A stretch of DNA of 64,000 nucleotides from Candidatus Uhrbacteria bacterium (GCA_018673485.1 JABHCP010000001.1:3512-67511); one strand, 5' to 3'; positions 3,273-28,167 are shown, numbered from the stretch's first letter. The notes: generated by a model not told the origin, from the sequence alone. Translations and numbers: made by a program.

Positions 3273-4511
3273 TCACATCATCTTCCTGCGGATAAATGCT
3301 GGAATACCGAGGTCTTCATCGTCTTGGGCTTGATCTGGTTTTGACTGCGTTCCACCAGATGTTGGCTGTGGACTAATTTTTTGTTCAAAGTTGTTCACGG
3401 GCTTTGACTGCATCGGAGTGCTTGAGACCCTATTTTGTTCAAACGGAGAATCCTTTTTTATATTCACTGCCGGTCGCTCATCGCGCTCTGGAGCCTTCCA
3501 ACTTCCTTGTGGCGCAACGTCAGTGTCTCCGGCCAAGCTTGGTGTGCTGCGTGGTTTTCTATTATCAAATCCAGTTGCTACAACCGTAATCTTAACTTCG
3601 TCTTCAAGTGTATCATCGATATTCGCACCAAAAATAACTCGCGCATCATCATCCGCTGACCCCGTGATAACCTTAGCAGCTTCAGCAACTTCGTACATTG
3701 AAAGGTCCGGGCTACCAGTAACAGTGAAGAGGATTCCCTTAGCTCCATCAATCGAAAGTTCTAGCAGTGGACTAGCGATTGCCATCTTTGCAGCTTCGAC
3801 TGCACGATTTTCTCCTGACGCTGATCCAATTCCCATCAATGCTGATCCAGCATTTTGCATAATCGCTTTAACATCGGCAAAGTCAACGTTAATGAGTCCA
3901 GGTAAAGTAATGATCTCGGAGATCCCTTGAACACCCTGTCGCAGTACATCATCGATTATCGCGAATGACTCTAAAAGTGAAGTCTTTTTGTCGATAATCT
4001 GCAAAATTCGATCATTGGGAATTGTAATGACTGTATCAACTTGTTCTACTAAATCATTATATGCGTCATCTGCAATTCGCTTTCGCTGTGCACCTTCAAA
4101 TGTGAAAGGCTTTGTAACTACAGCAACAGTCAGTGCGCCTGCCTCACGCGCAATCTTTGCTACCTCGGGCACCGCGCCACTTCCGGTTCCACCACCGAGC
4201 CCTGCGGTTAGAAAAACCATATCAGTTCCGGCGACCATATTGCGAATATCGTTTGCTCCTTCTTCTGCTGCCCGGCGACCGACCTCTGGATTCATTCCAG
4301 CTCCAAGACCACGAGTGACAGTTTTTCCAATCGCAACTTTTTCTTGAGCGGGGTTCTGATGAAGAGCTTGTACGTCGGTATTTACCGCAACAAAGCCGAC
4401 ACCTTTAATTTTCTCTTCGATCATTCGTTTTAGTGCAGCGCCTCCGCCGCCGCCAATTCCAAAAACTTTGATCTTCGCGAAAGTTTCTACTTCTGGTTTT
4501 ACTTGAACCAT
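3273..4511 (-). CDS. ftsZ: cell division protein FtsZ
   Basis: Tubulin signature GGGTGSGAAP, long C-terminal linker, C-terminal GIPAFIRRK peptide. Confidence 0.95.
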   Translation of the reverse strand: MVQVKPEVETFAKIKVFGIGGGGGAALKRMIEEKIKGVGFVAVNTDVQALHQNPAQEKVAIGKTVTRGLGAGMNPEVGRRAAEEGANDIRNMVAGTDMVFLTAGLGGGTGSGAVPEVAKIAREAGALTVAVVTKPFTFEGAQRKRIADDAYNDLVEQVDTVITIPNDRILQIIDKKTSLLESFAIIDDVLRQGVQGISEIITLPGLINVDFADVKAIMQNAGSALMGIGSASGENRAVEAAKMAIASPLLELSIDGAKGILFTVTGSPDLSMYEVAEAAKVITGSADDDARVIFGANIDDTLEDEVKITVVATGFDNRKPRSTPSLAGDTDVAPQGSWKAPERDERPAVNIKKDSPFEQNRVSSTPMQSKPVNNFEQKISPQPTSGGTQSKPDQAQDDEDLGIPAFIRRKMM

Positions 4512-5222: not shown

Positions 5223-6473
5223 TCACGGAATCAATGACTTCATCCACTTTCGTAACTGATCCGCGACCTGATTAACACCCTTGATATTTAATAAATTGAA
5301 CTTTCCACCATGAGCGCCACGTATAGCAAATCCCCAAAGTGTAAGACCGACAGCCGTCGCATAGGCACTATCTTGCACCTCATCGATAACGCTAGTAACT
5401 CCAATTGGTTTACCGATAGTTGATGGCAATCTCAGCACTCGCTTTGAAACATCAGCCACGCCCGGTAGATGCATTGTCGCACCCGTTAAAACAACCCCAA
5501 CTGGCAGCATTCCAGACCGATCAACCTTACGAAGTTCGTCATCAATATTCTCAAATAACTCCTCAATTCGAGCTTCAATAATTTCTGATACAAATCTAAC
5601 CTTTATCATCTCATCTTCAGTTGATCCAAAGTCAGCTAGTGAGAACTGAGCCTTTCTATCTACATCGTCTGGAACTGCATTACCAAACTCTCTCTTTACC
5701 TTCTCAGCGACTTCCAGTGATGTTCTAAGCCCGATAGCAATGTCATTGGTCAAATGATCCCCTCCAACAGGTAAAACCGCTGTATGGAGGATGTCACCTT
5801 CTTCAAAGACAACCATACTCGTTGAAGATGCACCGATGTCAATCACACATACTCCAAGCTCTTTTTGTCTTTGTGTGAGCACAGCCTCCGCAGTTGCTAG
5901 TGGAGTAAACACAAGATCGTCAATATCCAATCCGGTTCTATAAATTGTCTTGGTAAGATTCTTGATTTGAGATGAAAGTGTTTGAATAATCACCGCATCA
6001 ACCTCTAGTCTTATTCCACTCATGCCAACCGGGTCCTTGATTCCGTGCTGCCCGTCCACTGTGAAACTCTTTGGAATCACATGCAAAATCTCAAAATTCG
6101 ATGGTGTAGCCACGGTTCTAGCGGCCTCAATAACTCGCTCTACATCTTCTTCACGAATATCCGTATCTGCTCTGGCAATTCCAACCACTCCATGGCTCTC
6201 TTGCACAAATATATTATGCCCGGCAATTGAGACCCACGCACCATTTACTGCAACTCCTGTCATGCGCTCGGCGCGCTCTAATGCCTTTGAAACAGAAGAT
6301 ACCGCATCTTCCATAGAAGACACAGTTCCTTTATGTACGCCCTCTGATGGAACAGAAACGGCTCCGGTGATGTGTAATTGTGGTTTTCCGGTTTCATCAG
6401 GTACAACCTGACCTACAACCACACGTATTGTGGATGACCCAATATCTAACCCTGTGATGATCTCCTCTGCCAT
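5223..6473 (-). CDS. ftsA: cell division protein FtsA
   Basis: MAEEIITGLDIGSSTIRVVVGQ actin-like ATPase; 416 aa. Confidence 0.9.
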   Translation of the reverse strand: MAEEIITGLDIGSSTIRVVVGQVVPDETGKPQLHITGAVSVPSEGVHKGTVSSMEDAVSSVSKALERAERMTGVAVNGAWVSIAGHNIFVQESHGVVGIARADTDIREEDVERVIEAARTVATPSNFEILHVIPKSFTVDGQHGIKDPVGMSGIRLEVDAVIIQTLSSQIKNLTKTIYRTGLDIDDLVFTPLATAEAVLTQRQKELGVCVIDIGASSTSMVVFEEGDILHTAVLPVGGDHLTNDIAIGLRTSLEVAEKVKREFGNAVPDDVDRKAQFSLADFGSTEDEMIKVRFVSEIIEARIEELFENIDDELRKVDRSGMLPVGVVLTGATMHLPGVADVSKRVLRLPSTIGKPIGVTSVIDEVQDSAYATAVGLTLWGFAIRGAHGGKFNLLNIKGVNQVADQLRKWMKSLIP

Positions 6474-6500: not shown

Positions 6501-6887
6501 TTATCCGAAAAGCTTGCCAAGCTGCGCAATGTCTTGCAGATATGGCCATAGGATCATCGCTGCAATAAGCGCTGCAGTGCAAGACGTAATAAGTACGGCA
6601 CCTGCCATCATGTCTTTTACATCCTTAACCATATCACTGAGCCTTGGCTTGAGCCCGTCTGAGAGTCTTTCAAAAATGCTATTTATTACTTCGAGTACCA
6701 ATACCGCAGCGACGAGCAACAAAAGTACAACCTGCTCCCACACATCCAGCGGTAAAAGAAAAATAACGACCAAAACAACAAGTGCGGCAACAAGCTGAAC
6801 ACGGAAGCTATGCTCCTGCTTCATCACCTGCTTAATGCCTCGCAAAGCGTACTTTAGACTTTTGAAAAACTTTCTAAGTGAGATCAT
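6501..6887 (-). CDS. dgkA: diacylglycerol/undecaprenol kinase
   Basis: 128 aa, three transmembrane helices; DgkA-like; follows ybeY with a 4 bp overlap, as in the conserved ybeY-dgkA operon. Confidence 0.75.
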   Translation of the reverse strand: MISLRKFFKSLKYALRGIKQVMKQEHSFRVQLVAALVVLVVIFLLPLDVWEQVVLLLLVAAVLVLEVINSIFERLSDGLKPRLSDMVKDVKDMMAGAVLITSCTAALIAAMILWPYLQDIAQLGKLFG

Positions 6888-7294
6888 ATTATATGTTCAA
6901 CTATTTTATCTTGTAATGAAAACATTTCCTTATCCTCCCCTGGTTTTTCATGGTCATACCCTAGCACATGCAATATACCGTGAACAACTAAGTCGACCAC
7001 CTCATGCTCGACCGATCCGCTGGCCTGGCGCACGGCCTCATCATATGAAATGGCGATGTCGCCAATATTTTCTTTATTGTCCGGATAACCAAATGACAAT
7101 ACATCGGTAACCTCATCTTTTTTGCGGTACATTCTGTTTAATCGCCTAATTTCACTGTCAGTGACAAATCTGATACTAATGTCACCGTCTGCTGATAAAT
7201 CAGAATTTACCGCTAACTCAATACGCCTGAGCAAATCATCTGACAAGCGCTGTTCTGTTTCTATAACGGATTGTTCAAAATTAAGCCCTATCAT
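6884..7294 (-). CDS. ybeY: rRNA maturation endoribonuclease YbeY
   Basis: HGILHVLGYDH metal-binding motif. Confidence 0.9.
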   Translation of the reverse strand: MIGLNFEQSVIETEQRLSDDLLRRIELAVNSDLSADGDISIRFVTDSEIRRLNRMYRKKDEVTDVLSFGYPDNKENIGDIAISYDEAVRQASGSVEHEVVDLVVHGILHVLGYDHEKPGEDKEMFSLQDKIVEHII

Positions 7295-8256
7295 TTTGCC
7301 ACAAAGCTATTGATCATCATCTGGAATGTTTGCAAATATACAATCTCCAACTCATCGGCAAGGTCGTATTCAAACACAAACACCATATCACCTGCTTCAA
7401 TGTAGGCCAGCAGCCCATCTGAACCGATATAAGCCATGTAACCTTCTTTCGTGAGGGTTACATCCAATTCACTGAAATCCTCACTTGTACGGGCACTGTC
7501 GCTATACCAATCACTAAAATCACCCTCAGCTGACTTAAAGCCAGCCAGACGTATAGTTGCAGTTGAATTTGTTCTAAATATAACATCTTGAGTTTCCTCA
7601 AACTCAGAGTCTACCTCAGTAGCCACACTCCATTGCGCCGGATAAGTCAGTGTCATCACCTCATCTTCACTCCGATATTCATCAACCGCACCGGTATCGA
7701 GCAATGTTTGTGGAGCCTCGCCCAAAGGACTGTAACGATGGAACACCTCATTACCATCGAGGAATGTGTCTCCATCGGTATCTGGATCTCTAACGTCGGT
7801 TCCATACAAAAGCTCTTCGATGTCTGAAAGCCCATCACTGTCCAAATCTGAACCCGACCTTATCTCGATTACCACATCTGGCACTATAACCTCGTCCACA
7901 GTTGTATCCGTAGGAATATCCTGCTCCACAGGCTCCACACTCTGTATTGCAAACCAACCCAAAATCGAAAGTGTGATTACTAATATTAAACCTGCCAAAC
8001 CAAGAATAAGTGGTAAGCGGGATTTTTTCTTCTTGACTGGAGTCTTTTTCGCAACTGGTTTCACCACTGGCTTGACGACTGGCTTTACAATAGGTTTTGC
8101 AACCGGCTTTGGAGCCGGCTTCTTATCTTCCTTAACAACAGTCTTTTTTTGTTTGAAAGCCTCTGGCATTACATTAATCACAAAATCACTCAGCTCATCT
8201 GATTGTTTGTTCTTTTGAGCTCCTGCTCTAGGCTTGTCTTGCGTTTTATCAAACAT
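7291..8256 (-). CDS. single-pass membrane protein with proline/lysine repeats and a thrombospondin-type-3-like calcium-binding repeat
   Basis: KPVVKPVVKPVAK repeats in a Lys-rich cytoplasmic N-terminus, transmembrane helix LPLILGLAGLILVITLSILGW, extracellular DPDTDGDTFLDGNEVFHRYSPLG. Confidence 0.6.
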   Translation of the reverse strand: MFDKTQDKPRAGAQKNKQSDELSDFVINVMPEAFKQKKTVVKEDKKPAPKPVAKPIVKPVVKPVVKPVAKKTPVKKKKSRLPLILGLAGLILVITLSILGWFAIQSVEPVEQDIPTDTTVDEVIVPDVVIEIRSGSDLDSDGLSDIEELLYGTDVRDPDTDGDTFLDGNEVFHRYSPLGEAPQTLLDTGAVDEYRSEDEVMTLTYPAQWSVATEVDSEFEETQDVIFRTNSTATIRLAGFKSAEGDFSDWYSDSARTSEDFSELDVTLTKEGYMAYIGSDGLLAYIEAGDMVFVFEYDLADELEIVYLQTFQMMINSFVAK

Positions 8257-8270
8257 AACACCACTACCTG

Positions 8271-8984
8271 CTATTTAGGTAAATCAAACAACTTCCCTTC
8301 TCCATTTGGATTGTATCCTGAGGCAACCTCTTGTCCGTCCAAATAACTATCATCATCTGTATCGGCATCAAATGGATCTGTACCATAAACCTTAACTTCC
8401 TCACGATCACCTAGCCCATCTTTATCGGTATCGACATCTAATGGATCTGTTCCTTCTGCAATCTCCTCAGCGTCGGTTAAACCATCACCGTCTGTGTCCT
8501 GCTCCTCCAATTCTTCGTCTGTAGGCTCTGTGTCATCAATAATCTCATCATCCGAAATCACATTATCAACCTCATCGGCGACATCCTCCACTGTATCGTC
8601 TTCTACTACTTCATCAATGGCGACATCCTGAGTCATTAATCTATATGCCAAATATCCCGCTGCCGCGATTATCCCGATGGCAACTATAACGATTAATATT
8701 ACTTTAAAAACATTGGAAATGTCAGACTTTGGAGGTGATGGTGGCACTGTCCCTCCTGCAGGTGCTGGTTGCTTAGTTGGTGCTTTTGGAGTTGGAGATG
8801 CAGCTGGCGCGGGTGCTTCAGGCTTTGATTCCGCTGGGGCTGGCTTTTGCTCAGGTGCTGCAACAGCACTTTCCACAGCGGCAGGGGCTACTGGTAGATT
8901 TGTAGGAACACCAGGAGCGTCAGCACTCGCAAACATATCCTCAACCTCAGGAGCATCATCTTTCTTTACTTGATCGTCAAACAT
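8271..8984 (-). CDS. single-pass membrane protein with a C-terminal TSP3-like calcium-binding repeat module
   Basis: Transmembrane helix VFKVILIVIVAIGIIAAAGY; DTDGDGLTDAEEIAEGTDPLDVDTDKDGLGDREEVKVYGTDPFDADTDDDSYLDGQEVASGYNPNG. Confidence 0.6.
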   Translation of the reverse strand: MFDDQVKKDDAPEVEDMFASADAPGVPTNLPVAPAAVESAVAAPEQKPAPAESKPEAPAPAASPTPKAPTKQPAPAGGTVPPSPPKSDISNVFKVILIVIVAIGIIAAAGYLAYRLMTQDVAIDEVVEDDTVEDVADEVDNVISDDEIIDDTEPTDEELEEQDTDGDGLTDAEEIAEGTDPLDVDTDKDGLGDREEVKVYGTDPFDADTDDDSYLDGQEVASGYNPNGEGKLFDLPK

Positions 8985-9011
8985 AAATTATTTATTTAGT
9001 ATTTGTATATT

Positions 9012-9920
9012 CTATCCTAATGGGTCGTATCCTCCAATGACCTCTGTGCCGTCATCATAACCATCGCCGTCTGAATCTGGATTTGTTGGGTCTGTTCCGT
9101 GCAAGCGAACTTCTTCATAATCTGACAAACCGTCATCATCTGAATCTGAATCTTCATCACTTGTTCCCTGATATCTTTCTTCGTCAGCGTCCAATCCATC
9201 AAAATCTTTATCACCTGGCCCCACCATTTCAAGACAGGTATATTTATATTCTCGGATCCCAACTAAATAACATTTAGTTGGGTCTTGAGCTTCAATTGCC
9301 TCAGCCATAATTGCACCATATTTACATTGCGCGTCAGATATAATCTCATTATCGCAATTGCCGTTAATGCTTGCGTTTTGAGCCCACAATGCATGACAAT
9401 TATCAACTTTTTCTGAACTAGAATACTCCTCGCAATCACTGTAGGTATAATCATCACTCATTGTTTGAGTCACTATGGCATCACCACAACTATCCCTTGT
9501 TTCTTGATCTTCAATTTTTTTACAATCATCGGCATCTAAGGATGTCAAAGCGGATAATGCTGCGCACGAATCATAATCATCACCTTCAAGCTCATCACAA
9601 TAAGCGGTGTCACCAGTTTGTTGAGCCAACCGTGGAGCAGCACTTGCAATACATTTCTCTACGTCATCAGCACTCTGACATGACTCAATATAAAGCCTTG
9701 TACTTTGCTCAATATCGTTGCTACTACTGAAAAATGAACTAATCACAAACATTAACAACCAAACAACAAGGCCGATGACAATAATCGCACCAATGACTCT
9801 CCTAATAAGCACTCGATGCATTAACAGCCTATCTCTAAGACTGATAGTCTTCTCACCTTCTTGATCAATCTCATACCAATCAACCTGCTTTTCATCAAAT
9901 TGTTTTTGTTCGTTTTTCAT
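9012..9920 (-). CDS. single-pass membrane protein, Cys-rich ectodomain plus C-terminal TSP3-like repeat module
   Basis: Transmembrane helix VIGAIIVIGLVVWLLMFVISSFF, many Cys, DSDSDDDGLSDYEEVRLHGTDPTNPDSDGDGYDDGTEVIGGYDPLG. Confidence 0.6.
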   Translation of the reverse strand: MKNEQKQFDEKQVDWYEIDQEGEKTISLRDRLLMHRVLIRRVIGAIIVIGLVVWLLMFVISSFFSSSNDIEQSTRLYIESCQSADDVEKCIASAAPRLAQQTGDTAYCDELEGDDYDSCAALSALTSLDADDCKKIEDQETRDSCGDAIVTQTMSDDYTYSDCEEYSSSEKVDNCHALWAQNASINGNCDNEIISDAQCKYGAIMAEAIEAQDPTKCYLVGIREYKYTCLEMVGPGDKDFDGLDADEERYQGTSDEDSDSDDDGLSDYEEVRLHGTDPTNPDSDGDGYDDGTEVIGGYDPLG

Positions 9921-9932: not shown

Positions 9933-12900
9933 TTAATCAGTACACATATTAAGATACATATCGGACAATTCAACCGTTCCCTCTCCATTTAAAGACACTC
10001 TCAGTGTCACTGTTTGTTCACTGGACTCATCACATGCGAATGTACTTGGAAGATTGATCGACCTGCTTGATCCAGCTCCAACAGTGGAAGCCTCAGTCTC
10101 ACCATCAAATGTCAACGAAATCGTTACATTAAGAATAGCGTCAACAATTGCTTCATACATATCAGCCAATTCATTCGCTGTTGTTGCGCTGTAAGCATAC
10201 GTTGTTCCATTGTCCGGCACTACACAGTCATGATTACCTTCTGTGGTCATAACTCCACATGAACCACCACCGTCTGTATCACTAATATCTGTGCATTCCA
10301 TGCTAGACCATCGTTGCATCTGAGCGATTTGACAGTCGTTACTGCTTAATACTGCCGAGAATACCTCAACACCAGCGTCCTTGATGTCATCAAGGAGATT
10401 GCTTACTCCTCGCATATATTCATCCGTATCCATAACATCATCACCGTCTGTATCTTCTGTGTCGATATGATCAAAGTACAAACTTTCGTAATCAGTATTG
10501 TAAATGTTTCCATCAGTGAAAATAATCATATACTCATTGTCAGCATACCCAGAGAATCCCAGCGCAGCGTCCTCAATAGATTCATAAATAGGTGTTCCAG
10601 TTACACCGTCAACAACTAGGCCATCGGATATGCTCAATTGAGTATCTGACTCTGTTGTATACACGCCTGCCGAACTTGCAGCCTCCAACATCAAGAACTT
10701 ACCTTCTCCAGACGACGCATAGCTCGCCCAAGCAATTAATGGCTTAAATGAACTCATGGCTTGATCCCACAGTGACATAGATGCTAACTTTGTACCCTTT
10801 AAGCCTGGGGTGAAAACAGTTGCATCATCTGCCTCTCCAACACCATCTGTGCCAGATGTACCACTGTCACCCAATCCATCATCGGTGCTACTATCATCAT
10901 CCTCACAAAGAGCCTCACAGTCAGCCACATCTACAGCCATTTCCCCACAATCACACACAACTGGGTCTGGCTCGACCTCTTCACACTCATCACCTATTCC
11001 ATCACCATCTGTATCTGTTTGCGAAGAATTGGAATCATCTGGACAGTTATCATCTTCATCTACTATTCCATCACCATCTGTATCTACAGGAGCCGTATAA
11101 GTTTGATGTGTCCCTCCAATATACGCCCATCCGATCCCCATATTTGCTGAGGTTCCATCATACGCTTCATGTAGAGACGTAATTGCATCACTAACAGCTG
11201 ATTCCAGAACCTCGATCCTGGTACTATCCCCCAGCTCTGAACTCATTGATCCTGAAAGGTCAATAACGAACATAATTTCTACATCCGGATACTCTCTGTC
11301 ACTCTGATCAATTGAAATACTAATCCCATCAGAAACGGTACATGCTGGAATATACAATGTAACTGTGTCACCACTGACTACACTAGTTGCAGTAGCGTCA
11401 TATGGCGCCAGATCTACGGTGTAGCTTCTGCTTGCCCCAATCTGATTCGTCTGCATTGAAATGCTTTGCGCAGTGTATGTAAACGGACAAGTTGACTCGC
11501 ATGACGCGTCACAACTTGGAGCAACACATGTGCTAATGCCGTCCATGCAAAGTTCGGAAGTCGGAGAACAGTAACTACCATCACTCCAGGCAGCACCCCC
11601 TGCATCTCCACCTTCGCAAACACCAGTCGGCACACATGAACGTCCCTCATCGTCCACCAATCCATAATCGCTTGCAAGGCATGTTTCTCCAATTCCTAGG
11701 CCTGCACGCTGATATAGAGTCTCACTGTAATAATTATATAAAACATCAGTTCCATCACAAGTCTCGCTTCCGTTAATAACTCCGTCACCGCAGAAACTTC
11801 CAGATGTTGTGACATTCACACAGCTCTCATTACAATACGCACAAGTTGATCCGTATGTAGCCGAGCATATTTGACCGTTGTCGATACCCTCATCGCAATT
11901 CTCCATGCCAGCGTAAACATATCCGTCACCACAAACGTTGCTGGTGCACTCTATTGTGCAGTCGTCTGTTGAGTCGTCATTTCCATCATCACACTCTTCG
12001 CCGTCGTCAACCACTCCGTCTCCACAAGACCCTGGTGCAATACAATCTATGTCTGCCCAATCCTCTCCCCACTCGCAAACAGAGTCATCACAACTTCGTG
12101 TGCGGATTGTTTGATATTCAAATGTTGAGCAAATTCCATCCCCTCCTACGCTACTATCACAATAACTATTAACTCCACACGGCTCACCGGTCTTGCTAGC
12201 GTCTCCATCGATACACACGGTGGTATAAGGGCACTCATTGGCCGTATCTTTGGAAATATCATCAGGATCAGAGTCTCCACAGACCGCAGTGCCCGCCTCA
12301 ATCTCAGCCTCAATATCGATATCGTCGCCGTCACTTAGCCCAAAAGTACCCGATGCACAATCGCTATCTTGTTCGCATTCACCATCATTGTCCGACATTC
12401 CTGATGAACAAATCTTTCCGGAATAAGTTTCTGTGTTTCCATCGCACTCTTCTGAATCATCTGCTGTGCTATCTCCACAATATGGCGCTGGACCGGAACA
12501 ATCCCAAGCACAAGTGTCAGACGCGCTTGCACTATAAACTCCGTTCAGATATGTACACGCCCCTGCTCCATAGGCAGCTCCAGACGCTGGTGCCACAGAT
12601 CCACAGTCGCACAGCTCACCACCAGCAAGCTCTCCATCTCCGCAGTAGGTACGTGCTGAGTTAGTACAATCTGCACCACAGAATCCATAACTACCATTTA
12701 AAGATCCATCATCGCATTCCTCACCAGCTTCTAAAACTCCGTTTCCACAACTCAAAACTTCACACTCTAATGTTGCGTCATAACCTGAACACTCTGAGTT
12801 ACAATTGTTTAATATATATCCATCATTAACTCCATCTTCATCTGAATCACACGCCGCGCCTGAAGTGGTATCCCCTATTTCACAGGTCTCAGCACTTCCT

Positions 12901-15900
12901 ACTATTCCATCTCCACAAATGTCAGATGAACCCCAAACTGTTGATCCGTCACAAAAGGCTGCTCCATTTTGGAATCCGTCACCAGTACCACTGCCTCCAA
13001 TTAAAATCTGATAATCATCATAAATATTATTATCAATATCTGGCACCCAACTTCCCTGTTCAAACTCAAGCTCAGCGCCTATCACATATCCAGCATCTCC
13101 ATAAGTTCGATAGTGATATGTTCTTGAGTCAACCGGACAAAGGTACTGACCGGTGATTTCGTTTACACAAGTTTCAGAATCATAATCGCTATAACGACCG
13201 GTTCCGCAAAGTATGTATTGATTCAACGGGTCAGCTGCAACGCTTACTCCCAACTCATCTGCCAAAACATCATTCCATGAAGTCCAAACGCTTGATGTCA
13301 ATGAACGCACGAAACTTCCTGACTCAATTTGTGGAATCGTGCCACCCATGTAGCTCGCAATATCAGTAACGTCCCCCAAGCGATCCATGTCACGCATTAG
13401 CTTTGATTTTTCATCAGCGCACTCATAACCTACCGTGGTGCAATCTAAATCCGAAGTACAGCTATCGCCATAGTCCCCGTCTGTGCTGCGGTAACACATC
13501 GCTGTGTCATCAATATTATTTACCAATGACATATTCTCTATAAACATGTCGTAAATCTCTACCGCAGTGCTGCTTGCACCATAGTTGTACGAGACAATTA
13601 CAATATTTGGATACAACGAACCAGATACATAATTAGGCACGGCGACATAAATTGAACGTCCATCCACTACAGCTTGGAACCCATCGATAGTTGTTTCGGT
13701 TGGACTACCTGAGAACCCGTTCGCGTAATACCACGCAAGCGGACTTAGGTACGCCTCGTTCATAATAATCCTCATTCCAATGGCGTCGCCTGTTGGAATG
13801 TTGTCGTCATAAACATTAAAGAAATATTCCTTCAGAACATCATCAGTACCATGCTCTTGAGCCATCACTACTCGCAACTCAGGATAATCATCTGAAATTA
13901 GATCATCATCACCGTCGTCGCGACAATAATATGTTGAGAAGTTCATCCACGCTCGACCATGACGAGCCGATGTTGCAACACCTGCATGGTACCCATCGGC
14001 ACTGTCGCTAAATGGGAAATACTCCAGAGCTGGCCATAAGTTTTCACAAACCACTACTGACACGTCAGCAGTACCAGAGACAGTTGTCGCCTCACAAGTT
14101 CCAGAATCGCCACAGGCGTCCCCGGGTGTACACCCGGTAATGCTCGCGTCACTACTGCAATAGAACGACTCACCCGAGTCATCAACGGTCACAATGGCTG
14201 AGGTTGCGATGTTGGCCTGTCCTGTTATACCTGCCGCTGAATACGACCCTAAAGCAGGGCTTGCTAGATCAACAGTTTCGTCATCCAAAATCATTATTAT
14301 ATCTTCACCATTTGGCGCGCCATAGACATCAACACCGTCAGCGTCAGAACTCCAACTAACCCATCCCCATGCATAACTTGAAATTGGCTCAATTGATTGG
14401 GCTGCGCCTGTGTCATATGAATACGCTGTTGCTGAGAATTCATGAGACTCTCCGGACTCAGTAAACACATTTGGACTATCCGTTTCTCCATCGACAATAT
14501 CAACCTCGTCGAGCCCACAAATACTTTGATATGTTTCAAATATTTGTGAATGATCTCCATCCATTGCTACACCGTACCTTGTTAGCAATCCCTCGCGCGC
14601 TGTGTCGTCGAGCTCATCACCATAAACATAAATTGAATACTGAGCGTCGGGTGCCAGCGCTTCGTCGTAATGGAATACTACCTTGTAAACCTCATCCGCA
14701 CCCTCGCCTACGGTGCTCTGCGCAAAGCCAGTCATTGGCATAACACAGTCTCCACCATTTTGAGCTTGGACAATTGGAGCCAACATTCTACTAATCAAAC
14801 TAAAGGCTCGGCTCCACCAACCCTTTTGAATTTCATTCATTGCTATTGTTGAATGCGTACTTGGGCACAGTCCATCATCCGTCGTTGACACATCAAGGAT
14901 CAAAAATGCATTGTCATCAAATGATGATACGTCCATCTGCATATCAAACAATCCGTAAATCTCGGCATTTAAACATGCGCTTGAACCATTCGGGAAAAGA
15001 TCTGGATCAGGGCGTGCCATGCAACAACCAGTTGTAGCTGGGCCATAGCCCTCGTCACAGTCATCATCGTTTTCAGCTACACACGACAAGTAAAGCGAAG
15101 TGTAAGCTGAAAGTCCGTCATATGAAACCTCGATTGTTGACGTTGCAATATTTGTATCCATATCAACCTGCTCAGCTGCATCATCGATGATTTGAGCAAG
15201 CTGTACTGGGTCTGGATAACCATCAGGTCCAGCGCCATACGAGCTTTCCTCGCACACTGCCAACTCACCACTTCCTACAACTCCGTCTCCACAAACTGAA
15301 GGGTCGACGTAATAAATTGAAGAACCTGAGAGCAAGCAATCACTAGAGCACCACTCTTCCCCATCGCAATCCTCACCAGCGCCAGTGGAGCTGTCTTGAT
15401 CGAGCGACTCATCACCACAAGTTCCATAGCTTCCAGCTGAACCTTCACGCAAACAACTTGAAGAACACCCATCACCATCGATGGTGTTACCGTCGTCGCA
15501 TGTTTCATAAGGAGCATCTATATCCCAATCTCCGTCTCCACACTCAGCTGCAACTTGAGTAATAGGTGTTGTTCCTTCGTTTAAACATACTGAGGAACAT
15601 CCGTCACCTGAGGATGCATTTCCGTCGTCGCACTCTTCTCCACCTTGATCGTCCTCATGTGCCTCATCAAGATTTCCACAAGTTGCTCCGACTGACTGCG
15701 AGCCCTCGTTCAAACACGAACTTGAGCATCCGTCACCATTTCTCGAATTACTATCATCGCACTCCTCACCAGCATCCAAGTCTCCGTCTCCACAACATGA
15801 CGCGTCGTCTTGACCACAAGTTGAACTAGAATAAACACACTCTTCGTCAGACCCGCAAACTGTGCCAGAGATTGAGCAAGTGCCCTCCAGTGTTTCAGTG

Positions 15901-18900
15901 TCGCTGATCTCACAAACATCCTGACACTCCACGTCTGTACTACACGAGTCTCCAGTACTAGAGCATGAATACGTACAGGCGCTGGAACCAACATTTTGAC
16001 ATGTACTTGAACACGTAACATCGTCGGTGTCATCGCAGTCCTCACCAATCTCTACTATACCGTTACCACAAATTCCATAATATATTTCAGATCCTGTAGC
16101 AACGCACTCGGAAGTGCATCCAGACGGAATATTAGTTTGTCCGACATCAAATAGATCGCTTGAAATAGTCACCCACTGCGCGACATCCTCATCATCCACT
16201 ATTGGATCGGTCCACACCCACTCATATTCATAGCCATTCAATTCTTGTCCGGCAACTGAACAACTATCCGGATCTCCATAGGCAGTTACTTCGTAATACT
16301 GTGTGTCGCCAATGCTATCAAGTGTAATATTTTCTGGCTCCAAGCCTATGCGACCGACCAAACAAAGTGCATCGTCGTCCTTAGTCCCAAAAGTCCAAGA
16401 AAAATCATCGCCATAGTTTGTTCGTGACAGTGGAACTCCGCTTGTCGAGATAGCTGACCCCGAAACTATAACTCTATAATATTCTGCTTCTTTCAGCTCT
16501 GTGCCATATGTAGTGTCAGAAATTACCAGAGCAACCTCTGAACATCCAACAGATTCGATATCAGTTGAATCTCCAATAGAATCTGTATCGCTACAGCTTG
16601 CCACAGTTGTAATTTCTGAAAGAGTTGCGCAAAGCTCGTTCGCGCATGAATACAACGCTATATCACCAAGAACTGAATCATCCATTAGTGTATTGAAAGT
16701 TACGCTGATCGCACCGTTAATGCATGCGGTATCACAGTCTGGCAAGTAATCACTTACATAAGGATCCGCAAAGTTCACTATCACCTCGGCGTCTCCCTCT
16801 GTACCACTAGCCTGCTCTTCTGCAGTTAGCACCGTCGTACCCTCCGCTACCGCCACTGCTGACTGACAATACTCGTCGCTTATAGTCGCACAACTCGTCA
16901 GCCCAACATATGAACCAGTATCCAAATCCCAATCCCATGAGTAATCAACTGGATTTAGCACCTGGCACTCTTGAAGTGGAAGTGCATTAAACTCTGATTC
17001 ATCTCCCTGCTCGTCGATTGTCGCTGATATCGGACTAACCAAAACCTCGGATACATCACAATCCTCCTCACTTGCACCAGTTGTGAAAGTCCATGAATAT
17101 TCCTGGCTTAAGTTCTGTCCATCTTGGGACATTATTTGATCACTAACTTCTACTAAATACGAAGTGCTTGTCTTAAATTTTCCGCCATTATATGTTGAGT
17201 GTGCTGTCCATATAAACGATGTCTGAGTGGCGCTCGCGCTATCTTGCACTGAATCTGCCAAAACCTCTGCCGCGTCCTTATCGTCACCGCTTAGATCGCA
17301 ATCACTGTCCTCGCACTCATAAACTTTGATGTAGTCGCTCGTGATAGTGCTTGTATCCATTAATGTGCTGAAAGTTCCACGCACAACCGCATTAGTGCAC
17401 GCCTCTCGCGTGAAGCGATAGTTAGGCACGGCACTCACCAAAGTATCCGAACATTCAACTAAAAGTTCAGGCACTACCGGTATGGGTCCAGTTGAGAAAA
17501 ACCAGCTATACCCACCCAGCGACAATGTGGTGTCACTCGACTCTTCTGCTCCTATTTCAAAATTAAGCGTGTTACTTTCTTCTCCTCCGGCTGAAGTAAC
17601 ACTCAACGCTCCAGTCTGCGCTCCAGACGGAACATTTACAGTAATATCACTATCGCTCCAGTCACCAGAGACGACTGTAGCGCTCACACCGCTGAAAAAC
17701 TCAACTGAACCAATGTCAGAGCCAAGGTTCTCTCCATAAATAACCACGGTATCATCCACTTCGCCCATATCCGGATCAATTGCGCAAATTCCCGGCGTTG
17801 GGTCATCATTTGTTACTTCAAAATCCATAGCCTCGGAGTCAATATCGGCCTGGCTTGTTATATAAATATCATAGTCCCCTACCGTAAGACTGTCTCCGCC
17901 TGTAAATTCGTCAGGCACTATTACAGTTATTTCGGTGGTATCCCAAATTTGTCCCTCACACTCATCTGGAAACTCAATACTTCCTTGCGCTGTGTATCCG
18001 CTGGTCTGATCCTCAAACCAAACGGTGCCCAAAGAAGATCCAAAGCTTGTTCCGGAGATCGTTACATATTGACCGATCCCTCCACTATCAGGCTCAACTG
18101 AATAAATAGTTGGTACAATGTCATCTCCATAATCAACACCAAAGCTGATCTCGTTTGAAGTCACTCCATCAACTGTCACAGAAAGATCAACGTACTCACC
18201 GGCAGTGAGTGACGGAACAGTAATTGTGAGTGACGAATCTGACCACCTAGAGTAACTGCTCGTCGTGGTTGTATTAAAACTTACAAATGAATCATCTCGA
18301 CTGTCTCCAAAGCCTAGCCCAGAAAGTGACACTCCGTCTCCGACTTCAGCAGTATCAGGACTAACGTTACAAAGACTTGGTCGCTGCGTATCATTAACAT
18401 CAAAATCATCAATTAATGCACCCGAATCATCGTCGGTTGCGTCTGAATACCCTCGAGGTATCTCGATTGTAATTGGACCATCAGCTGCTCCGTCTGGTAC
18501 TTCAGCAATGATCTCCTCAGAGTTCCAACCGTCACCACATGATGGAATATCGGCCTCAACTGTGCCACCCGCACCATCTGCGAAGTAAACGGAACCAGTT
18601 GACCCAAAACCGGATCCAGAAATAGTTACATAAGTTCCAACCGCACCGTTTGAAGGTGAGACGCTACTTATTTCAGGATATGTTACACATGCCCCATCTT
18701 CACAGTCTCCACCCGAACAATCACTATCTTCAGAGCATGATTCACCATCGCAACTACCACAACTTCCACCGCAATCAACCCCCTCTTCGTCACCATCCAA
18801 TACTCTACTAAAACAATGAGCTGGCAGAATCCTAATTCGAACAGAATCAGAATCTTCATTTCCAGCAATATCGGTCACTGTAACTTCGAGCGTGTAACGT

Positions 18901-19928
18901 GCATCTTCCTCGGCGTCATCTGTGTACCAAGTGCTCTCGATTGTCACGTCAGACAAGTCTGCACCACTGGCTGCAACACTATCGAACCAATCGTCACCGG
19001 CATAAAAATCAGCAACTGATATTTCACTATCATCTGTTGCAGATATTTGAACAAGCGTTGAACTATCCGCTGGAATCATCTCACCACTATCTGGATATGT
19101 GACGCTTACATTGGGGTCCTCTGTATCAACTATGTCCCCTGTTGTGAAAGTCGATGTACAACTTACAGCCGAACAATCTAGAGAGGTTCCTGATGTGCTA
19201 TCAATATCGCTATCAACTACAACTGTGTATTGTGTATTTTCACCAAAACAGAATCGATCTTCATTAGGTTCCGGGCAAGGCTCCGATGGTGTAAACGTAA
19301 CTTTATTTCCAGAAATCTCTAATGTGCCATCAACCTCATCGCCAGTTTCTGTATTAGAAATAGTAAGATTGCCCTCAACGGTATCCTCTTGAACTCGCCG
19401 GCTAAAAGTAACATTCAAAACCACGTTTCGAATTGAAACCTCACCTTCTGGTGAATAACTGGCAACTGCAAAGCTCGAAGCCGATCCACCACCCATACCA
19501 CTGGACGCCCCTGAAGAACTTGAGCTTGAACTCGATCCTGAGCCACCCGAGCCGTCTGTTAAGGCCCCTAACACAAATGTGGTGATTGACCAGGACAAAA
19601 GTATTATTCCCAGGCCAATAAAGCCATTTAATAAAATCTTTTTCGCTTTATCCACTTTGTCAGGGTCGCCTTGGGCTGTCATCCAGACAAATCCTCCGTA
19701 CAGCACGATGACCACTGCAATAACGCCCAGCACCGTCAGAAAGGTTCTGATCAGCCTGGCGACTATGATTTGCAGACTCTCATCTTGCAAACCGCTAGTC
19801 TCACCTACAGTTTCAAGTTCATCAACTTGAGCGTACGCTGTGTGGATTGGTGCTAAAACACCTCCCGACACAGTAAATACGACTGCGAGTGCGCTTAATA
19901 GTAAAGTGAAACGTTTGAGTAATGACAT
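9933..19928 (-). CDS. giant (3331 aa) membrane-anchored surface protein with IPT/TIG repeats, Myxococcus-type cysteine-rich repeats, a vWA domain and TSP3 repeats
   Basis: N-terminal signal peptide plus a two-helix module (LGVIAVVIVLYGGFVWMTAQGDPDKVDKAKKILLNGFIGLGIILL). Repeated SPxxGxxGxYVTISGxxFG IPT-like units. At least 8 CGDGxxxxGEECDDGNxxxGDGCSxxC units. MIDAS motif DVEIMFVIDLSGSMS. DTDGDGIVDEDDNCPDDSNSSQTDTDGDGIGDEC. Confidence 0.85.
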   Translation of the reverse strand: MSLLKRFTLLLSALAVVFTVSGGVLAPIHTAYAQVDELETVGETSGLQDESLQIIVARLIRTFLTVLGVIAVVIVLYGGFVWMTAQGDPDKVDKAKKILLNGFIGLGIILLSWSITTFVLGALTDGSGGSGSSSSSSSSGASSGMGGGSASSFAVASYSPEGEVSIRNVVLNVTFSRRVQEDTVEGNLTISNTETGDEVDGTLEISGNKVTFTPSEPCPEPNEDRFCFGENTQYTVVVDSDIDSTSGTSLDCSAVSCTSTFTTGDIVDTEDPNVSVTYPDSGEMIPADSSTLVQISATDDSEISVADFYAGDDWFDSVAASGADLSDVTIESTWYTDDAEEDARYTLEVTVTDIAGNEDSDSVRIRILPAHCFSRVLDGDEEGVDCGGSCGSCDGESCSEDSDCSGGDCEDGACVTYPEISSVSPSNGAVGTYVTISGSGFGSTGSVYFADGAGGTVEADIPSCGDGWNSEEIIAEVPDGAADGPITIEIPRGYSDATDDDSGALIDDFDVNDTQRPSLCNVSPDTAEVGDGVSLSGLGFGDSRDDSFVSFNTTTTSSYSRWSDSSLTITVPSLTAGEYVDLSVTVDGVTSNEISFGVDYGDDIVPTIYSVEPDSGGIGQYVTISGTSFGSSLGTVWFEDQTSGYTAQGSIEFPDECEGQIWDTTEITVIVPDEFTGGDSLTVGDYDIYITSQADIDSEAMDFEVTNDDPTPGICAIDPDMGEVDDTVVIYGENLGSDIGSVEFFSGVSATVVSGDWSDSDITVNVPSGAQTGALSVTSAGGEESNTLNFEIGAEESSDTTLSLGGYSWFFSTGPIPVVPELLVECSDTLVSAVPNYRFTREACTNAVVRGTFSTLMDTSTITSDYIKVYECEDSDCDLSGDDKDAAEVLADSVQDSASATQTSFIWTAHSTYNGGKFKTSTSYLVEVSDQIMSQDGQNLSQEYSWTFTTGASEEDCDVSEVLVSPISATIDEQGDESEFNALPLQECQVLNPVDYSWDWDLDTGSYVGLTSCATISDEYCQSAVAVAEGTTVLTAEEQASGTEGDAEVIVNFADPYVSDYLPDCDTACINGAISVTFNTLMDDSVLGDIALYSCANELCATLSEITTVASCSDTDSIGDSTDIESVGCSEVALVISDTTYGTELKEAEYYRVIVSGSAISTSGVPLSRTNYGDDFSWTFGTKDDDALCLVGRIGLEPENITLDSIGDTQYYEVTAYGDPDSCSVAGQELNGYEYEWVWTDPIVDDEDVAQWVTISSDLFDVGQTNIPSGCTSECVATGSEIYYGICGNGIVEIGEDCDDTDDVTCSSTCQNVGSSACTYSCSSTGDSCSTDVECQDVCEISDTETLEGTCSISGTVCGSDEECVYSSSTCGQDDASCCGDGDLDAGEECDDSNSRNGDGCSSSCLNEGSQSVGATCGNLDEAHEDDQGGEECDDGNASSGDGCSSVCLNEGTTPITQVAAECGDGDWDIDAPYETCDDGNTIDGDGCSSSCLREGSAGSYGTCGDESLDQDSSTGAGEDCDGEEWCSSDCLLSGSSIYYVDPSVCGDGVVGSGELAVCEESSYGAGPDGYPDPVQLAQIIDDAAEQVDMDTNIATSTIEVSYDGLSAYTSLYLSCVAENDDDCDEGYGPATTGCCMARPDPDLFPNGSSACLNAEIYGLFDMQMDVSSFDDNAFLILDVSTTDDGLCPSTHSTIAMNEIQKGWWSRAFSLISRMLAPIVQAQNGGDCVMPMTGFAQSTVGEGADEVYKVVFHYDEALAPDAQYSIYVYGDELDDTAREGLLTRYGVAMDGDHSQIFETYQSICGLDEVDIVDGETDSPNVFTESGESHEFSATAYSYDTGAAQSIEPISSYAWGWVSWSSDADGVDVYGAPNGEDIIMILDDETVDLASPALGSYSAAGITGQANIATSAIVTVDDSGESFYCSSDASITGCTPGDACGDSGTCEATTVSGTADVSVVVCENLWPALEYFPFSDSADGYHAGVATSARHGRAWMNFSTYYCRDDGDDDLISDDYPELRVVMAQEHGTDDVLKEYFFNVYDDNIPTGDAIGMRIIMNEAYLSPLAWYYANGFSGSPTETTIDGFQAVVDGRSIYVAVPNYVSGSLYPNIVIVSYNYGASSTAVEIYDMFIENMSLVNNIDDTAMCYRSTDGDYGDSCTSDLDCTTVGYECADEKSKLMRDMDRLGDVTDIASYMGGTIPQIESGSFVRSLTSSVWTSWNDVLADELGVSVAADPLNQYILCGTGRYSDYDSETCVNEITGQYLCPVDSRTYHYRTYGDAGYVIGAELEFEQGSWVPDIDNNIYDDYQILIGGSGTGDGFQNGAAFCDGSTVWGSSDICGDGIVGSAETCEIGDTTSGAACDSDEDGVNDGYILNNCNSECSGYDATLECEVLSCGNGVLEAGEECDDGSLNGSYGFCGADCTNSARTYCGDGELAGGELCDCGSVAPASGAAYGAGACTYLNGVYSASASDTCAWDCSGPAPYCGDSTADDSEECDGNTETYSGKICSSGMSDNDGECEQDSDCASGTFGLSDGDDIDIEAEIEAGTAVCGDSDPDDISKDTANECPYTTVCIDGDASKTGEPCGVNSYCDSSVGGDGICSTFEYQTIRTRSCDDSVCEWGEDWADIDCIAPGSCGDGVVDDGEECDDGNDDSTDDCTIECTSNVCGDGYVYAGMENCDEGIDNGQICSATYGSTCAYCNESCVNVTTSGSFCGDGVINGSETCDGTDVLYNYYSETLYQRAGLGIGETCLASDYGLVDDEGRSCVPTGVCEGGDAGGAAWSDGSYCSPTSELCMDGISTCVAPSCDASCESTCPFTYTAQSISMQTNQIGASRSYTVDLAPYDATATSVVSGDTVTLYIPACTVSDGISISIDQSDREYPDVEIMFVIDLSGSMSSELGDSTRIEVLESAVSDAITSLHEAYDGTSANMGIGWAYIGGTHQTYTAPVDTDGDGIVDEDDNCPDDSNSSQTDTDGDGIGDECEEVEPDPVVCDCGEMAVDVADCEALCEDDDSSTDDGLGDSGTSGTDGVGEADDATVFTPGLKGTKLASMSLWDQAMSSFKPLIAWASYASSGEGKFLMLEAASSAGVYTTESDTQLSISDGLVVDGVTGTPIYESIEDAALGFSGYADNEYMIIFTDGNIYNTDYESLYFDHIDTEDTDGDDVMDTDEYMRGVSNLLDDIKDAGVEVFSAVLSSNDCQIAQMQRWSSMECTDISDTDGGGSCGVMTTEGNHDCVVPDNGTTYAYSATTANELADMYEAIVDAILNVTISLTFDGETEASTVGAGSSRSINLPSTFACDESSEQTVTLRVSLNGEGTVELSDMYLNMCTD

Positions 19929-19937
19929 GTAACAAGA

Positions 19938-21749
19938 TTATGAACTAAAGAAGGAACACGCGTTGTCCGATGGCGCTCCATTGCAACAATAAGGGTAATC
20001 ACTATCTGTACCACAGCTTCCTCCAGAAGTATCTGGCCCTTCTCCTGGTGCAAAACAATTTTGATACTGGTTCTTTACCCCATCCCCAACATCTGTTGTG
20101 TAATAATATGTAGCTGTATCAACACTTTCAAAAAATACTCCATGATAGATCTCTGCCTGAGTTACAACTGGGCTTAAACCAGTTTCTGACGTGTCACCAC
20201 CAAATATATCTAACGAATTTGACCAAACCGTATACCACATCTCATGCAACGGGCTTGAAGTAAGGTCGATGAAATTTTCTGTGTCGGTTGAGCTTGTAAG
20301 CGTTGACGTCATCATTATTGAATCAAAGGTAACTAGAACTGTTTGATCCAAAGCCACATCTTCTTCCAAAATATTTGGAGAAATATCGACTATCACAGGT
20401 GCGTCCAAGCTGATATCACCCGTTGTTGTAAAACTCCACACATAATCGTCACCAGCTGTACCATCGCCGTCACCATCGAGCCCGTTACCGGACGTATCAG
20501 CTATTCCGTCATAAGGAGAAATATCAACCTGCGGTGGCTCGGCCCCTATTGTCGGTGCACCAACAGTTACAGTAATTGGCTGACTGCCGGGTAAACAATA
20601 AATTGTTTGTCCGCAAGAGTTTGTGCCACAAGGGTCGTCTGACGTAAACGTGACTGTTCTATAACCATTACTAATTACATATTCACCGGCAGTTGGTGTT
20701 CCGCTATCACCCGTAACTTGGATGTTGTCAAAACCTGAATCGGTACCGCGTATACCTGTGGCACTAGTTAAGTCCACCGCTTCGCTGAAGGTTATCTCGA
20801 CCGTAATGTTTCTATCATAACTTCCAGACGCTACTGGAGTGACAGTTCTAACGCTTGGTGGAGTAAGATCAATTTCAGTTCCAACTTCAAATGACCACTC
20901 GTACCCTCCGCCATTTAATACTGTAGATCCTTCGGCGGTTTTTATACTGTCGTCGAGGAACACAGTGTATGAGGTGTCGTCAGTTGGAGAACCCAAAAGC
21001 GGCGTGTCGAATACAAATGTTTTTAAATCATCAGTGAAAGTAACACTTACCTCCGTTGATGCAAACACTGTACCGTCCTCATCTGCTGATTGATAAATGA
21101 TTATATTATCTGCGTTTAGCGCGGTGTCAACCGTGTCATCTGAAAGGTCTTCTGGAGTTCCGTTCACATCGTACCCCTCAATAAATGACTCAATGTCCAT
21201 CGCTTCTTTAAAGGTAACGAAAATTCGCGTGTTGCGAGCAACCTCGGTTGCGTTACGTGCTGGGTAATGATCGCTAAGTCCGCCCGACCCTAATGAGCCT
21301 GACAATCGCTCAGCAGATATTGTAGTCGAAGAAGACGTTGACGATGTGCCGGTGCTTGAAATTGCTCCAGTCAACGCACTAATGATAAATGCAGTAATCG
21401 CATATGCCCCCAATGTGATAATCAAACCAATGGTTGCGTTGATAAGTATTGTCTTTGCCTTGTCGACCTTGTCGCCCTCGCCACCGGCTGTCATCCAAAG
21501 GAATCCAGCATACAGAACGAGAAGTAAGAAGATGACTCCTAATGTACTTAGGAATACTTTTATAATTGTCCCGATGAGTTCTGCTAAGTCTGTATCTTGA
21601 AGTCCTGATGCATCTCCGGTAGCTTCCAGTCCTTCAGCGACTTGCGCGAATGCAGGTACTGCACTAAAAACAAAAAGCATCAGTACAAAAAAACTGACAC
21701 CTACCATCAACATACTCGCTTTGGGTAGAAGCGCTCTAAATATATTCAT
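19938..21749 (-). CDS. 603 aa surface protein sharing the N-terminal two-helix module with the giant protein; Ig-like domains
   Basis: N-terminus LGVIFLLLVLYAGFLWMTAGGEGDKVDKAKTILINATIGLIITL is paralogous to that of the 9933..19928 protein; S/T linker; Big-like domains (VTFKEAMD, ITFSEAVD). Confidence 0.8.
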   Translation of the reverse strand: MNIFRALLPKASMLMVGVSFFVLMLFVFSAVPAFAQVAEGLEATGDASGLQDTDLAELIGTIIKVFLSTLGVIFLLLVLYAGFLWMTAGGEGDKVDKAKTILINATIGLIITLGAYAITAFIISALTGAISSTGTSSTSSSTTISAERLSGSLGSGGLSDHYPARNATEVARNTRIFVTFKEAMDIESFIEGYDVNGTPEDLSDDTVDTALNADNIIIYQSADEDGTVFASTEVSVTFTDDLKTFVFDTPLLGSPTDDTSYTVFLDDSIKTAEGSTVLNGGGYEWSFEVGTEIDLTPPSVRTVTPVASGSYDRNITVEITFSEAVDLTSATGIRGTDSGFDNIQVTGDSGTPTAGEYVISNGYRTVTFTSDDPCGTNSCGQTIYCLPGSQPITVTVGAPTIGAEPPQVDISPYDGIADTSGNGLDGDGDGTAGDDYVWSFTTTGDISLDAPVIVDISPNILEEDVALDQTVLVTFDSIMMTSTLTSSTDTENFIDLTSSPLHEMWYTVWSNSLDIFGGDTSETGLSPVVTQAEIYHGVFFESVDTATYYYTTDVGDGVKNQYQNCFAPGEGPDTSGGSCGTDSDYPYCCNGAPSDNACSFFSS

Positions 21750-21841
21750 AAATATTTCTATTGTAAGTCATTACGACTAACAACATTATACCGCAAATGC
21801 ATGATATCTTCGCGATGAAATGTGGACAAAGAACAAACCAA

Positions 21842-21870
21842 AACACCACTCGATATTTTCGAGTGGTGTT
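21842..21870 (-). terminator. rho-independent terminator after the Gly-rich giant gene
   Basis: ACACCACTCGA-tatttt-TCGAGTGGTGT, an 11 bp perfect stem followed by a T-run on the minus transcript. Confidence 0.6.
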
Positions 21871-21892
21871 TATCATTTCATCTTTCAATTTT

Positions 21893-25924: not shown

Positions 25925-26007
25925 GTTTAAATTGTTGGCTATATTATAGCACCGCGGAGTGCTAAAAAAAACAAACATGGGGATAGAAAAAACCCCGCAT
26001 CACACCA

Positions 26008-27252: not shown

Positions 27253-27274
27253 AATCGAATTGTCTACGTTGGAC

Positions 27275-28129: not shown

Positions 28130-28167
28130 TTAGACGCTGACCTTGCGGTCTAGATTGTGAGCTCGAG

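Follow-up and report, generated by a model that had tools for sequence, protein, structure and literature searches.

The question raised by this locus is what part three consecutive membrane-protein genes play between the gene of a giant surface protein and ybeY. They lie in a 64,000-nucleotide (nt) stretch of the patescibacterium Candidatus Uhrbacteria bacterium (GCA_018673485.1 JABHCP010000001.1:3512-67511), hereafter the window, and encode proteins that we call A, B, and C; the giant protein is called Giant, and a fourth protein, D, is encoded elsewhere in the window. A preliminary description had proposed that A-D are four paralogues ending in the same calcium-binding module, three of them in an operon running into ybeY-dgkA, and that they form a calcium-dependent envelope or surface-layer scaffold, perhaps linked to the giant adhesins immediately upstream. 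The analysis reported here indicates that the conserved core of the locus is a giant pilin-anchored protein followed by B and C, to which A is an Uhrbacteria-specific addition, and that A-D are four different extracytoplasmic envelope proteins with one short module of thrombospondin type 3 (TSP3) repeats in common. From the gene neighborhood, we judge the chances to be about even that B and C are calcium-stabilized, membrane-anchored partners of the giant surface protein; the calcium dependence and the surface-layer scaffold are kept here as putative. The genes and domains on which the argument turns are the following (aa, amino acids):

9012-9920, minus strand: protein A, 302 aa, bitopic with the N-terminus inside
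9015-9218, minus strand: module of A, residues 235-302, three units, at the protein end ...GGYDPLG
8271-8984, minus strand: protein B, 237 aa, bitopic
8295-8498, minus strand: module of B, residues 163-230
7291-8256, minus strand: protein C, 321 aa, bitopic
7714-7848, minus strand: TSP3 pair of C, residues 137-181
7294-7689, minus strand: PsbP/Mog1/Tsi3-like alpha-beta domain of C, residues 190-321
34968-35660, plus strand: protein D, 230 aa, predicted lipoprotein, next to pth and der and away from the A-B-C cassette
35115-35252, plus strand: module of D, residues 50-95, two TSP3 units

A scan of GTDB with one genome per species found 207 genomes that encode a relative of C, and gene order was counted in the best 80 loci, many of them labeled Candidatus Uhrbacteria or Patescibacteria group and the rest carrying generic titles of metagenome-assembled genomes (MAGs). 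The complete order Giant-A-B-C-ybeY-dgkA was intact in 63/80 loci, where the run continues into ftsA-ftsZ, while A-B-C was intact in 68/80 and C-ybeY-dgkA in 78/80; the loci without the full order were mostly cut at contig ends. This order persists although identity to the proteins of the window drops to ~22-30%. The preliminary description was therefore right to expect a trio conserved as a set and syntenic with ybeY, and the contrary outcome that it had allowed for, proteins not kept together in relatives, was not what the best 80 loci showed. Copies of C identical to that of the window were also found in several metagenome assemblies. The title 'uncultured Gammaproteobacteria bacterium' stands on many of the MAG records concerned, which nevertheless carry the Uhrbacteria-type locus, with a pilin-domain giant protein, A-B-C, and ybeY-dgkA-ftsA-ftsZ; these titles look like mislabels.

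Outside the Uhrbacteria-like genomes the arrangement changes, and it is B and C that stay together. Matches of A from other lineages that covered only the repeats turned out to be B orthologues. The Falkowbacteria-like loci have neither ybeY nor A and are ordered as one or more pilin-domain proteins, a protein of ~1000-1460 aa, a bitopic protein of 85-103 aa, B, and C; in locus L089 the protein of the ~1000-1460-aa class was matched to the body of Giant. Beyond C come clpP, which is encoded on the opposite strand, then secDF and wzy, in some loci a glycosyltransferase gene, and finally a prepilin peptidase gene, ftsA, and ftsZ. Another lineage reads hisS...yqeY-Giant-B-C-ybeY-dgkA-ftsA-ftsZ, again without A. 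A C-like gene was found at 33 loci when metagenomes were scanned independently with the B alignment as seed: B was directly upstream of C in 29 of the 30 loci that extended far enough, a large open reading frame (ORF) of Giant-like or pilin-domain type stood upstream on the same strand in all 18 informative loci, the gene after C was ybeY in 18/26 and clpP in 4/26, and A was present in only three of the 33. Altogether, B-C and a giant neighbor recur in at least four types of locus that differ in arrangement, two of them labeled Uhrbacteria-like and Falkowbacteria-like, and several of the large upstream proteins, Giant of the window included, carry a VirB2-like hairpin of the T4SS_pilin type. 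Since A is restricted to Uhrbacteria-like genomes and D has only ~10 full-length homologues, the conserved unit is B plus C and not a family of four. The ybeY junction is common but dispensable. The link to the upstream giant, which the preliminary description had offered as a possibility, is the best supported of its proposals, given the constant position of B-C downstream of a large ORF in the metagenome loci.

The repeats themselves are genuine. Each of the four proteins has two or three tandem units of 22-23 residues of the form DxDxDGxxDxxE...GTDP, the last of which reads D.D.D.[YF].DG.EV...[GR]Y.P in all four, and each unit consists of an EF-hand-type loop, acidic at positions 1, 3, 5, 9, and 12, and a short helix. 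Scored against the Pfam family TSP3_bac (PF18884), whose curated gathering cutoff is 25 bits, B (54.4 bits), A (34.5), and D (28.7) are above the cutoff, and C alone is below it (13.3 bits, E 0.075); C is counted as TSP3_bac because its module is 60% identical to that of A over 45 aa (BLASTP, E 2e-12) and its loop columns are invariant among 120 homologues. Asp and Glu make up 26-37% of the ectodomains around the repeats, so that acidic low complexity with chance DxDxD matches, an outcome for which the preliminary description had left room, had to be weighed. However, the motif count was reached in 0/5000 shuffles per protein, and neither was it reached when the acidic sub-region alone was shuffled; the hidden Markov model scores lie above the cutoff, the period and the loop positions are invariant across families, and a confident predicted structure matches a solved one. 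Conservation in the family alignments of A, B, and C is highest in the columns of the module, which therefore does not reflect low-complexity bias. We regard an artefact of composition as refuted by the shuffles and the model scores, and its probability as negligible. The common DxDxDG/GTDP repeat of the preliminary description is thus upheld, as an EF-hand-like TSP3 module of conserved spacing that is predicted from its sequence to bind calcium. As for the families against which it had suggested a comparison, PF18884 matched, and PF02412 gave no match for A-D at E<=1, nor any for Giant or for the excised C-terminal region of Giant. OmpA_C (PF00691) was absent from A-D and was seen only in unrelated proteins that share the repeat. 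Neither Pfam nor NCBIfam gave an SLH or other S-layer anchoring domain, and the label 'S-layer domain protein' that one A homologue carries in the database has no domain behind it. The closest PDB sequences to the module, as weak sequence matches, are lanmodulin/EF-hand proteins.

The module is also an ordinary one, already catalogued. A search with residues 130-321 of C against 1.84 billion cluster representatives was dominated by the TSP3 arrays of giant proteins and gave a family size but no context: 8014 representative clusters matched at E<=0.001, many of them with 10-46 units. Elsewhere the module is fused to OmpA_C, YkuD (PF03734), lectin, cadherin, and other domains, and NCBI already labels homologues 'thrombospondin type 3 repeat-containing protein'. 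Pairwise BLASTP among A-D showed similarity confined to the 42-70-residue module; a longer alignment between B and C covers Pro-rich and acidic low-complexity sequence and was obtained with compositional correction off. Since only the module is shared, A-D are no whole-length paralogues, and the idea of four paralogues has to be given up.

Beyond the module the four proteins differ widely. As had been described, A, B, and C are consecutive ORFs upstream of ybeY with one transmembrane (TM) segment each, a strong hydrophobic helix at residues 42-60 in A, 95-113 in B, and 81-99 in C, where the whole TM segment is taken as 81-104. Basic residues lie on the N-side of the TM helix in A and C, and the net charge of the ectodomains is -41 to -47. 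A positively charged N-terminus, which had been ascribed to every one of them, was found in C (+15, Lys/Pro-rich) and not in A (0, with a basic juxtamembrane stretch) or B (-6, proline-rich). Likewise, the module ends the protein in A and B only, being followed by a globular domain of 130 residues in C and by a Cys-containing domain in D.

In A, the first TSP3 unit (residues 235-258) is degenerate in the family alignment, and the ectodomain before the module is predicted to be an all-alpha repeat, whose 12 conserved Cys fall into six C-x8-12-C pairs with a period of ~27 residues. The AlphaFold2 (AF2) model has a per-residue confidence (pLDDT) of ~90 over residues 100-300, module included. A Foldseek search of the PDB matched the TSP3 part only, to the tandem EF-hand region of Staphylococcus aureus Bap, and returned insignificant alpha-repeat/HEAT-like matches for the helical ectodomain; judging from the model, residues 80-230 may be an undescribed disulfide-stapled alpha-solenoid. 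In protein B a Pro/Ala-rich cytoplasmic segment leads into the TM helix, and an acidic linker then connects the helix to three TSP3 units and a tail, GYNPNGEGKL. The N-terminal cytoplasmic motifs of B, MFD... and VEDMF in the window, are kept across distant lineages as MF[DN] and [DE]D[IM]F, and the tail is conserved in the family as GY[DN]PNGxGKL.

Protein C has a Lys/Pro-rich cytoplasmic N-terminus that contains the motif H-V-M-P..F (H-x-M-P..F in the family), then the TM helix, two TSP3 units, and a C-terminal domain of PsbP/Mog1 fold. No stretch of the family is more invariant than the TSP3 pair with the FHRYDPLGxAPxTLLDTG that comes after it (120 sequences). For residues 190-321 the AF2 pLDDT is above 90, and Foldseek against the PDB returned PsbP, CyanoP, Mog1, and Tsi3 (E 2.5e-5 to 5e-3, probability 0.99-1.0); the Pfam family PsbP_2 (PF18933) gave 12.1 bits (E 0.2), below its cutoff of 27 bits. 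One C homologue (P0016) has a DNCP-type thrombospondin repeat, DGDGVLDDDDNCPEDANASQADVDDDGIGDVCD, inserted in the linker after the TM helix (alignment columns ~160-200), of the same subtype as a C-terminal stretch of Giant. Protein D, which starts at 34968 and not at 34966 as first given, is a predicted lipoprotein, as had been proposed: its signal MKKLALLTLASLLLVGFG|C fits by eye the PROSITE PS51257 lipobox rule, and G18-C19 are invariant in 10 sequences. Six Cys are conserved in the C-terminal domain that follows its module. The protein is 100% identical to NCBI HN358_05015 of Candidatus Uhrbacteria bacterium, and is a lineage-specific lipoprotein that reuses the module and is otherwise unrelated to A-C.

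The genes that flank A-B-C in the window are arranged as follows:

21893-25978, minus strand: G3, 1361 aa, with Big_5
21841-21871, minus strand: terminator-like hairpin with a 13-bp stem, between G3 and G2, the strongest of the region (consensus scan only)
19938-21749, minus strand: G2, 603 aa, pilin-like N-terminus (PF18895 sub-threshold) and Big_5
9933-19928, minus strand: Giant, 3331 aa
6884-7294, minus strand: ybeY (Pfam YbeY, 1.4e-34)
6501-6887, minus strand: dgkA (Pfam DAGK_prokar, 8.8e-27)
5223-6473, minus strand: ftsA, conserved neighbor downstream of the cassette
3273-4511, minus strand: ftsZ, conserved neighbor downstream of the cassette

Giant opens with a signal peptide, to which a T4SS_pilin hairpin of VirB2-like type with two TM helices is joined (PF18895, 46.6 bits against a cutoff of 26.6 bits), followed by TIG, Big_5, Big_7, Cys-rich DUF4215-like repeats, and a weak C-terminal VWA_2 match; a VWA domain was detected in Giant orthologues. 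It had been said to contain the same acidic repeats as A-D, but only two isolated DxDxDG loops were found, near residues 2972 and 3159, with no match to PF18884 or PF02412; the loop near 2972 belongs to a DNCP-type stretch that adjoins the VWA_2 match. The hairpin of G2 scores 20.6 bits, below the PF18895 cutoff. G2 and Giant are consecutive and both join a signal peptide and a VirB2-like pilin hairpin to a large ectodomain of Ig-like domains, and related loci also have tandem pilin-domain proteins of 850-2500 aa. Among the ORFs of the window that were scanned there was no VirB4 or other type IV secretion system (T4SS) gene, and a T4SS locus was rejected for that reason.

Packing is tight from Giant onward. 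The intergenic gaps are 12 nt between Giant and A, 27 nt between A and B, and 14 nt between B and C; the stop codon of C overlaps the start codon of ybeY by 4 nt (ATGA), and ybeY and dgkA also overlap by 4 nt. No hairpin comparable to that at 21841-21871 was seen by the consensus scan in the gaps from Giant to ftsA, and a promoter scan gave counts equal to those in shuffles; the putative transcription unit probably starts with G2.

How B and C might work as partners of the giant protein can be outlined as follows. A-C would insert with the N-terminus inside and the C-terminus outside; with calcium available outside the cell, their TSP3 units would take up Ca2+ and form a rigid, acidic folded module, and by means of this module, of the PsbP-fold domain of C, and of the disulfide-stapled repeat of A, the proteins could assemble with the giant adhesin-like protein or hold it at the membrane. 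The invariant cytoplasmic motifs (MF[DN]...[DE]D[IM]F in B, MF...H-x-M-P in C) might provide a cytoplasmic contact for the complex, and co-transcription into ybeY-dgkA would reflect a compact conserved gene order, not a shared function. A wider proposal, which we hold to be unlikely though worth stating, is that the giant protein or proteins together with B-C, and with A in Uhrbacteria, are an undescribed surface apparatus present across several Patescibacteria groups, Uhrbacteria-like and Falkowbacteria-like among them, and used for attachment to a host or substrate, in which B-C would form the calcium-dependent transmembrane base and the motifs would couple the adhesin to a cytoplasmic partner, possibly FtsA/FtsZ.

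Several observations weigh against a partnership between B-C and the giant protein. The case for it is one of gene neighborhood, and Patescibacteria retain long synteny for reasons unrelated to function. Binding of Ca2+ by the modules is itself inferred, from the sequence and from structural similarity to Bap, and AF2 confidence in C drops to ~54 over the second TSP3 unit. Given that no T4SS gene is present in the window, the pilin-like hairpin may be a membrane anchor only. Moreover, in the lineage of loci L095 and L096 the order is B, a 62-aa ORF, and C, and the 2 kb upstream encode no large protein. That small ORF (2764-2952 in L095, 2797-2985 in L096), which lies between the B-like and the C-like gene and encodes 'LHIMP' and a TM helix, resembles the H-x-M-P motif and anchor of C, like a duplicated N-terminus. 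The same lineage fits an explanation that we consider possible but clearly less probable than partnership with the giant protein, namely that A-D are independent envelope proteins whose TSP3 repeats are generic calcium-rigidified spacers holding unrelated ectodomains in the wall zone, the juxtaposition with the giant gene and ybeY being inherited synteny without any complex or common pathway. Such spacers would resemble those of OmpA-family proteins and YkuD fusions in other phyla; the module is widespread and promiscuous, and D carries it at an unrelated locus. Nevertheless, the B-C order and the large upstream ORF were kept almost without exception in the metagenome loci (29/30 and 18/18) although the downstream genes are rearranged between lineages, and the TSP3 pair of C with its next 15 residues is invariant in the 120 sequences while the linkers drift, so that the constraint exceeds what a spacer needs.

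The cassette is as constant upstream of ftsA-ftsZ as it is downstream of the giant gene, and for that reason a role in division also has to be considered against the partnership: B and C, and perhaps A, would be lineage-specific proteins of the divisome or of wall growth, with N-terminal motifs in contact with FtsA/FtsZ and ectodomains at the septal wall. The cassette precedes ftsA-ftsZ in every lineage seen, reaching ftsA directly through ybeY-dgkA or over ~7-9 kb through clpP-secDF-wzy-pilD, the short cytoplasmic motifs of B and C are invariant, and other phyla fuse TSP3 to peptidoglycan-binding or peptidoglycan-crosslinking domains. We nevertheless think it improbable, for the searches turned up no resemblance to FtsQ/POTRA, FtsL/FtsB, FtsN, or any other division family, the distance to ftsA varies and has housekeeping genes in it, and the giant surface protein is the tighter and more constant neighbor. 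A functional tie of the trio to ybeY-dgkA, that is, to rRNA maturation and lipid recycling, would agree with the 4-nt overlap of C and ybeY in the window, with C-ybeY-dgkA in 78/80 Uhrbacteria-like loci, and with ybeY as the next gene in most metagenome loci (18/26), but is very improbable, as the Falkowbacteria-like and L095-type loci retain B-C without ybeY/dgkA, the adjacency of ybeY and dgkA is an ancient Firmicutes-type arrangement, and YbeY is a cytoplasmic RNase for which we know of no envelope partner.

Partnership of B and C with the giant protein, if it holds, would bear on a wider subject, since the attachment of ultra-small Patescibacteria to other cells and their dependence on them are understood mainly from a few cultivated Saccharibacteria. 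The gene set supplies specific candidate components of a complex for the envelope or for attachment, and the family motifs of B and C are simple markers with which to find it.

Three other regions of the window deserve mention. Between rpsU/yqeY and hisS, at 27200-29100, there is an island of ~1.9 kb with a GC content of 0.54-0.62 against ~0.44 for the genome; its two ORFs, both on the minus strand (27275-28063, 262 aa, and 28168-29022, 284 aa), have no Pfam match, and the island gave no significant Rfam match and no match to phage DNA. The island may be of foreign origin, or the assembly may be chimeric here. A 531-aa ORF at 58273-59868 (minus strand) combines a LexA DNA-binding domain, Peptidase_S24, and a full C-5 cytosine DNA methylase, an unusual LexA-Dcm architecture, and no Pfam match at E<=0.01 was obtained for a 496-aa ORF at 41964-43454 (minus strand), which is flanked by topA and a RelA/SpoT gene.

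Compared with known systems, the module has many relatives and the proteins have few. The PF18884 proteins of the OmpA family and the YkuD fusions have the same 22-residue repeat as A, B, and D, all above the cutoff, but A-D have no OmpA_C, YkuD, or beta-barrel and only 2-3 units; B and C have conserved cytoplasmic motifs besides, and C the PsbP-fold domain. The closest solved structure to the module of A is that of EF-hand motifs 2/3 in region B of S. aureus Bap (7c7u, 7c7r), on which 44-45 residues superpose with a root-mean-square deviation of 0.8-1.0 A and 47-48% identity (Foldseek). Bap, a giant biofilm protein anchored by sortase, forms amyloid under the control of its EF-hands. Experimentally, mutation of its DxDxDG loops abolishes calcium control (PMC7785521); the likeness ends at the 45-residue module. 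The repeats of eukaryotic thrombospondin and COMP (type 3, PF02412) follow the same DxDxDGxxDxxD/E calcium-loop principle, and their DNCP...Q.D.DDDG.GD.C spelling occurs in Giant and in P0016, whereas A-D are without the disulfide-bearing Cys of that repeat. Dockerin type I, with 2-3 tandem EF-hand-like loop-helix units of 22-23 residues, is a calcium-dependent docking module; it is a functional analogy only, as a small calcium-dependent module that ends unrelated proteins. Dockerin_1 (PF00404) was absent from the matches of A-D at E<=1 and no cohesin-like partner was identified.

In Myxococcus xanthus, the gliding-motility lipoprotein CglD and the cell-cohesion protein MtsD belong to the envelope proteins with calcium repeats and act together with a VWA adhesin; VWA domains are present in orthologues of Giant. 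Their NCBIfam families matched weakly and in the TSP3 region only (17-20 bits against cutoffs of 400); there is no homology beyond the repeats, the envelope is of another type, and no gliding machinery is present. The alpha-beta sandwich of C residues 190-321 is that of PsbP, CyanoP, Mog1, and Tsi3, whose members are protein-binding modules, at 9-15% identity and with no photosystem, Ran, or type VI secretion context. The N-terminus of Giant matches the VirB2-like pilins (PF18895) that form arrays in the T4SS of Patescibacteria, but here the hairpin is fused to a protein of >3000 residues with no virB4 or other T4SS gene nearby. VirB2-like pilin genes are widespread in the candidate phyla radiation, in a study that found no adhesins and makes no mention of giant fusions or of the B-C pair (bioRxiv 10.1101/2025.01.22.634366). 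Our literature search found no paper linking Patescibacteria with thrombospondin type 3 repeats, PF18884 mentioned in one Omnitrophota preprint only, and no description of the cassette. The repeat is therefore known, and the value of this locus lies not in it but in what appears undescribed, the B-C pair, its motifs, and the constancy with which it accompanies giant pilin-anchored proteins.

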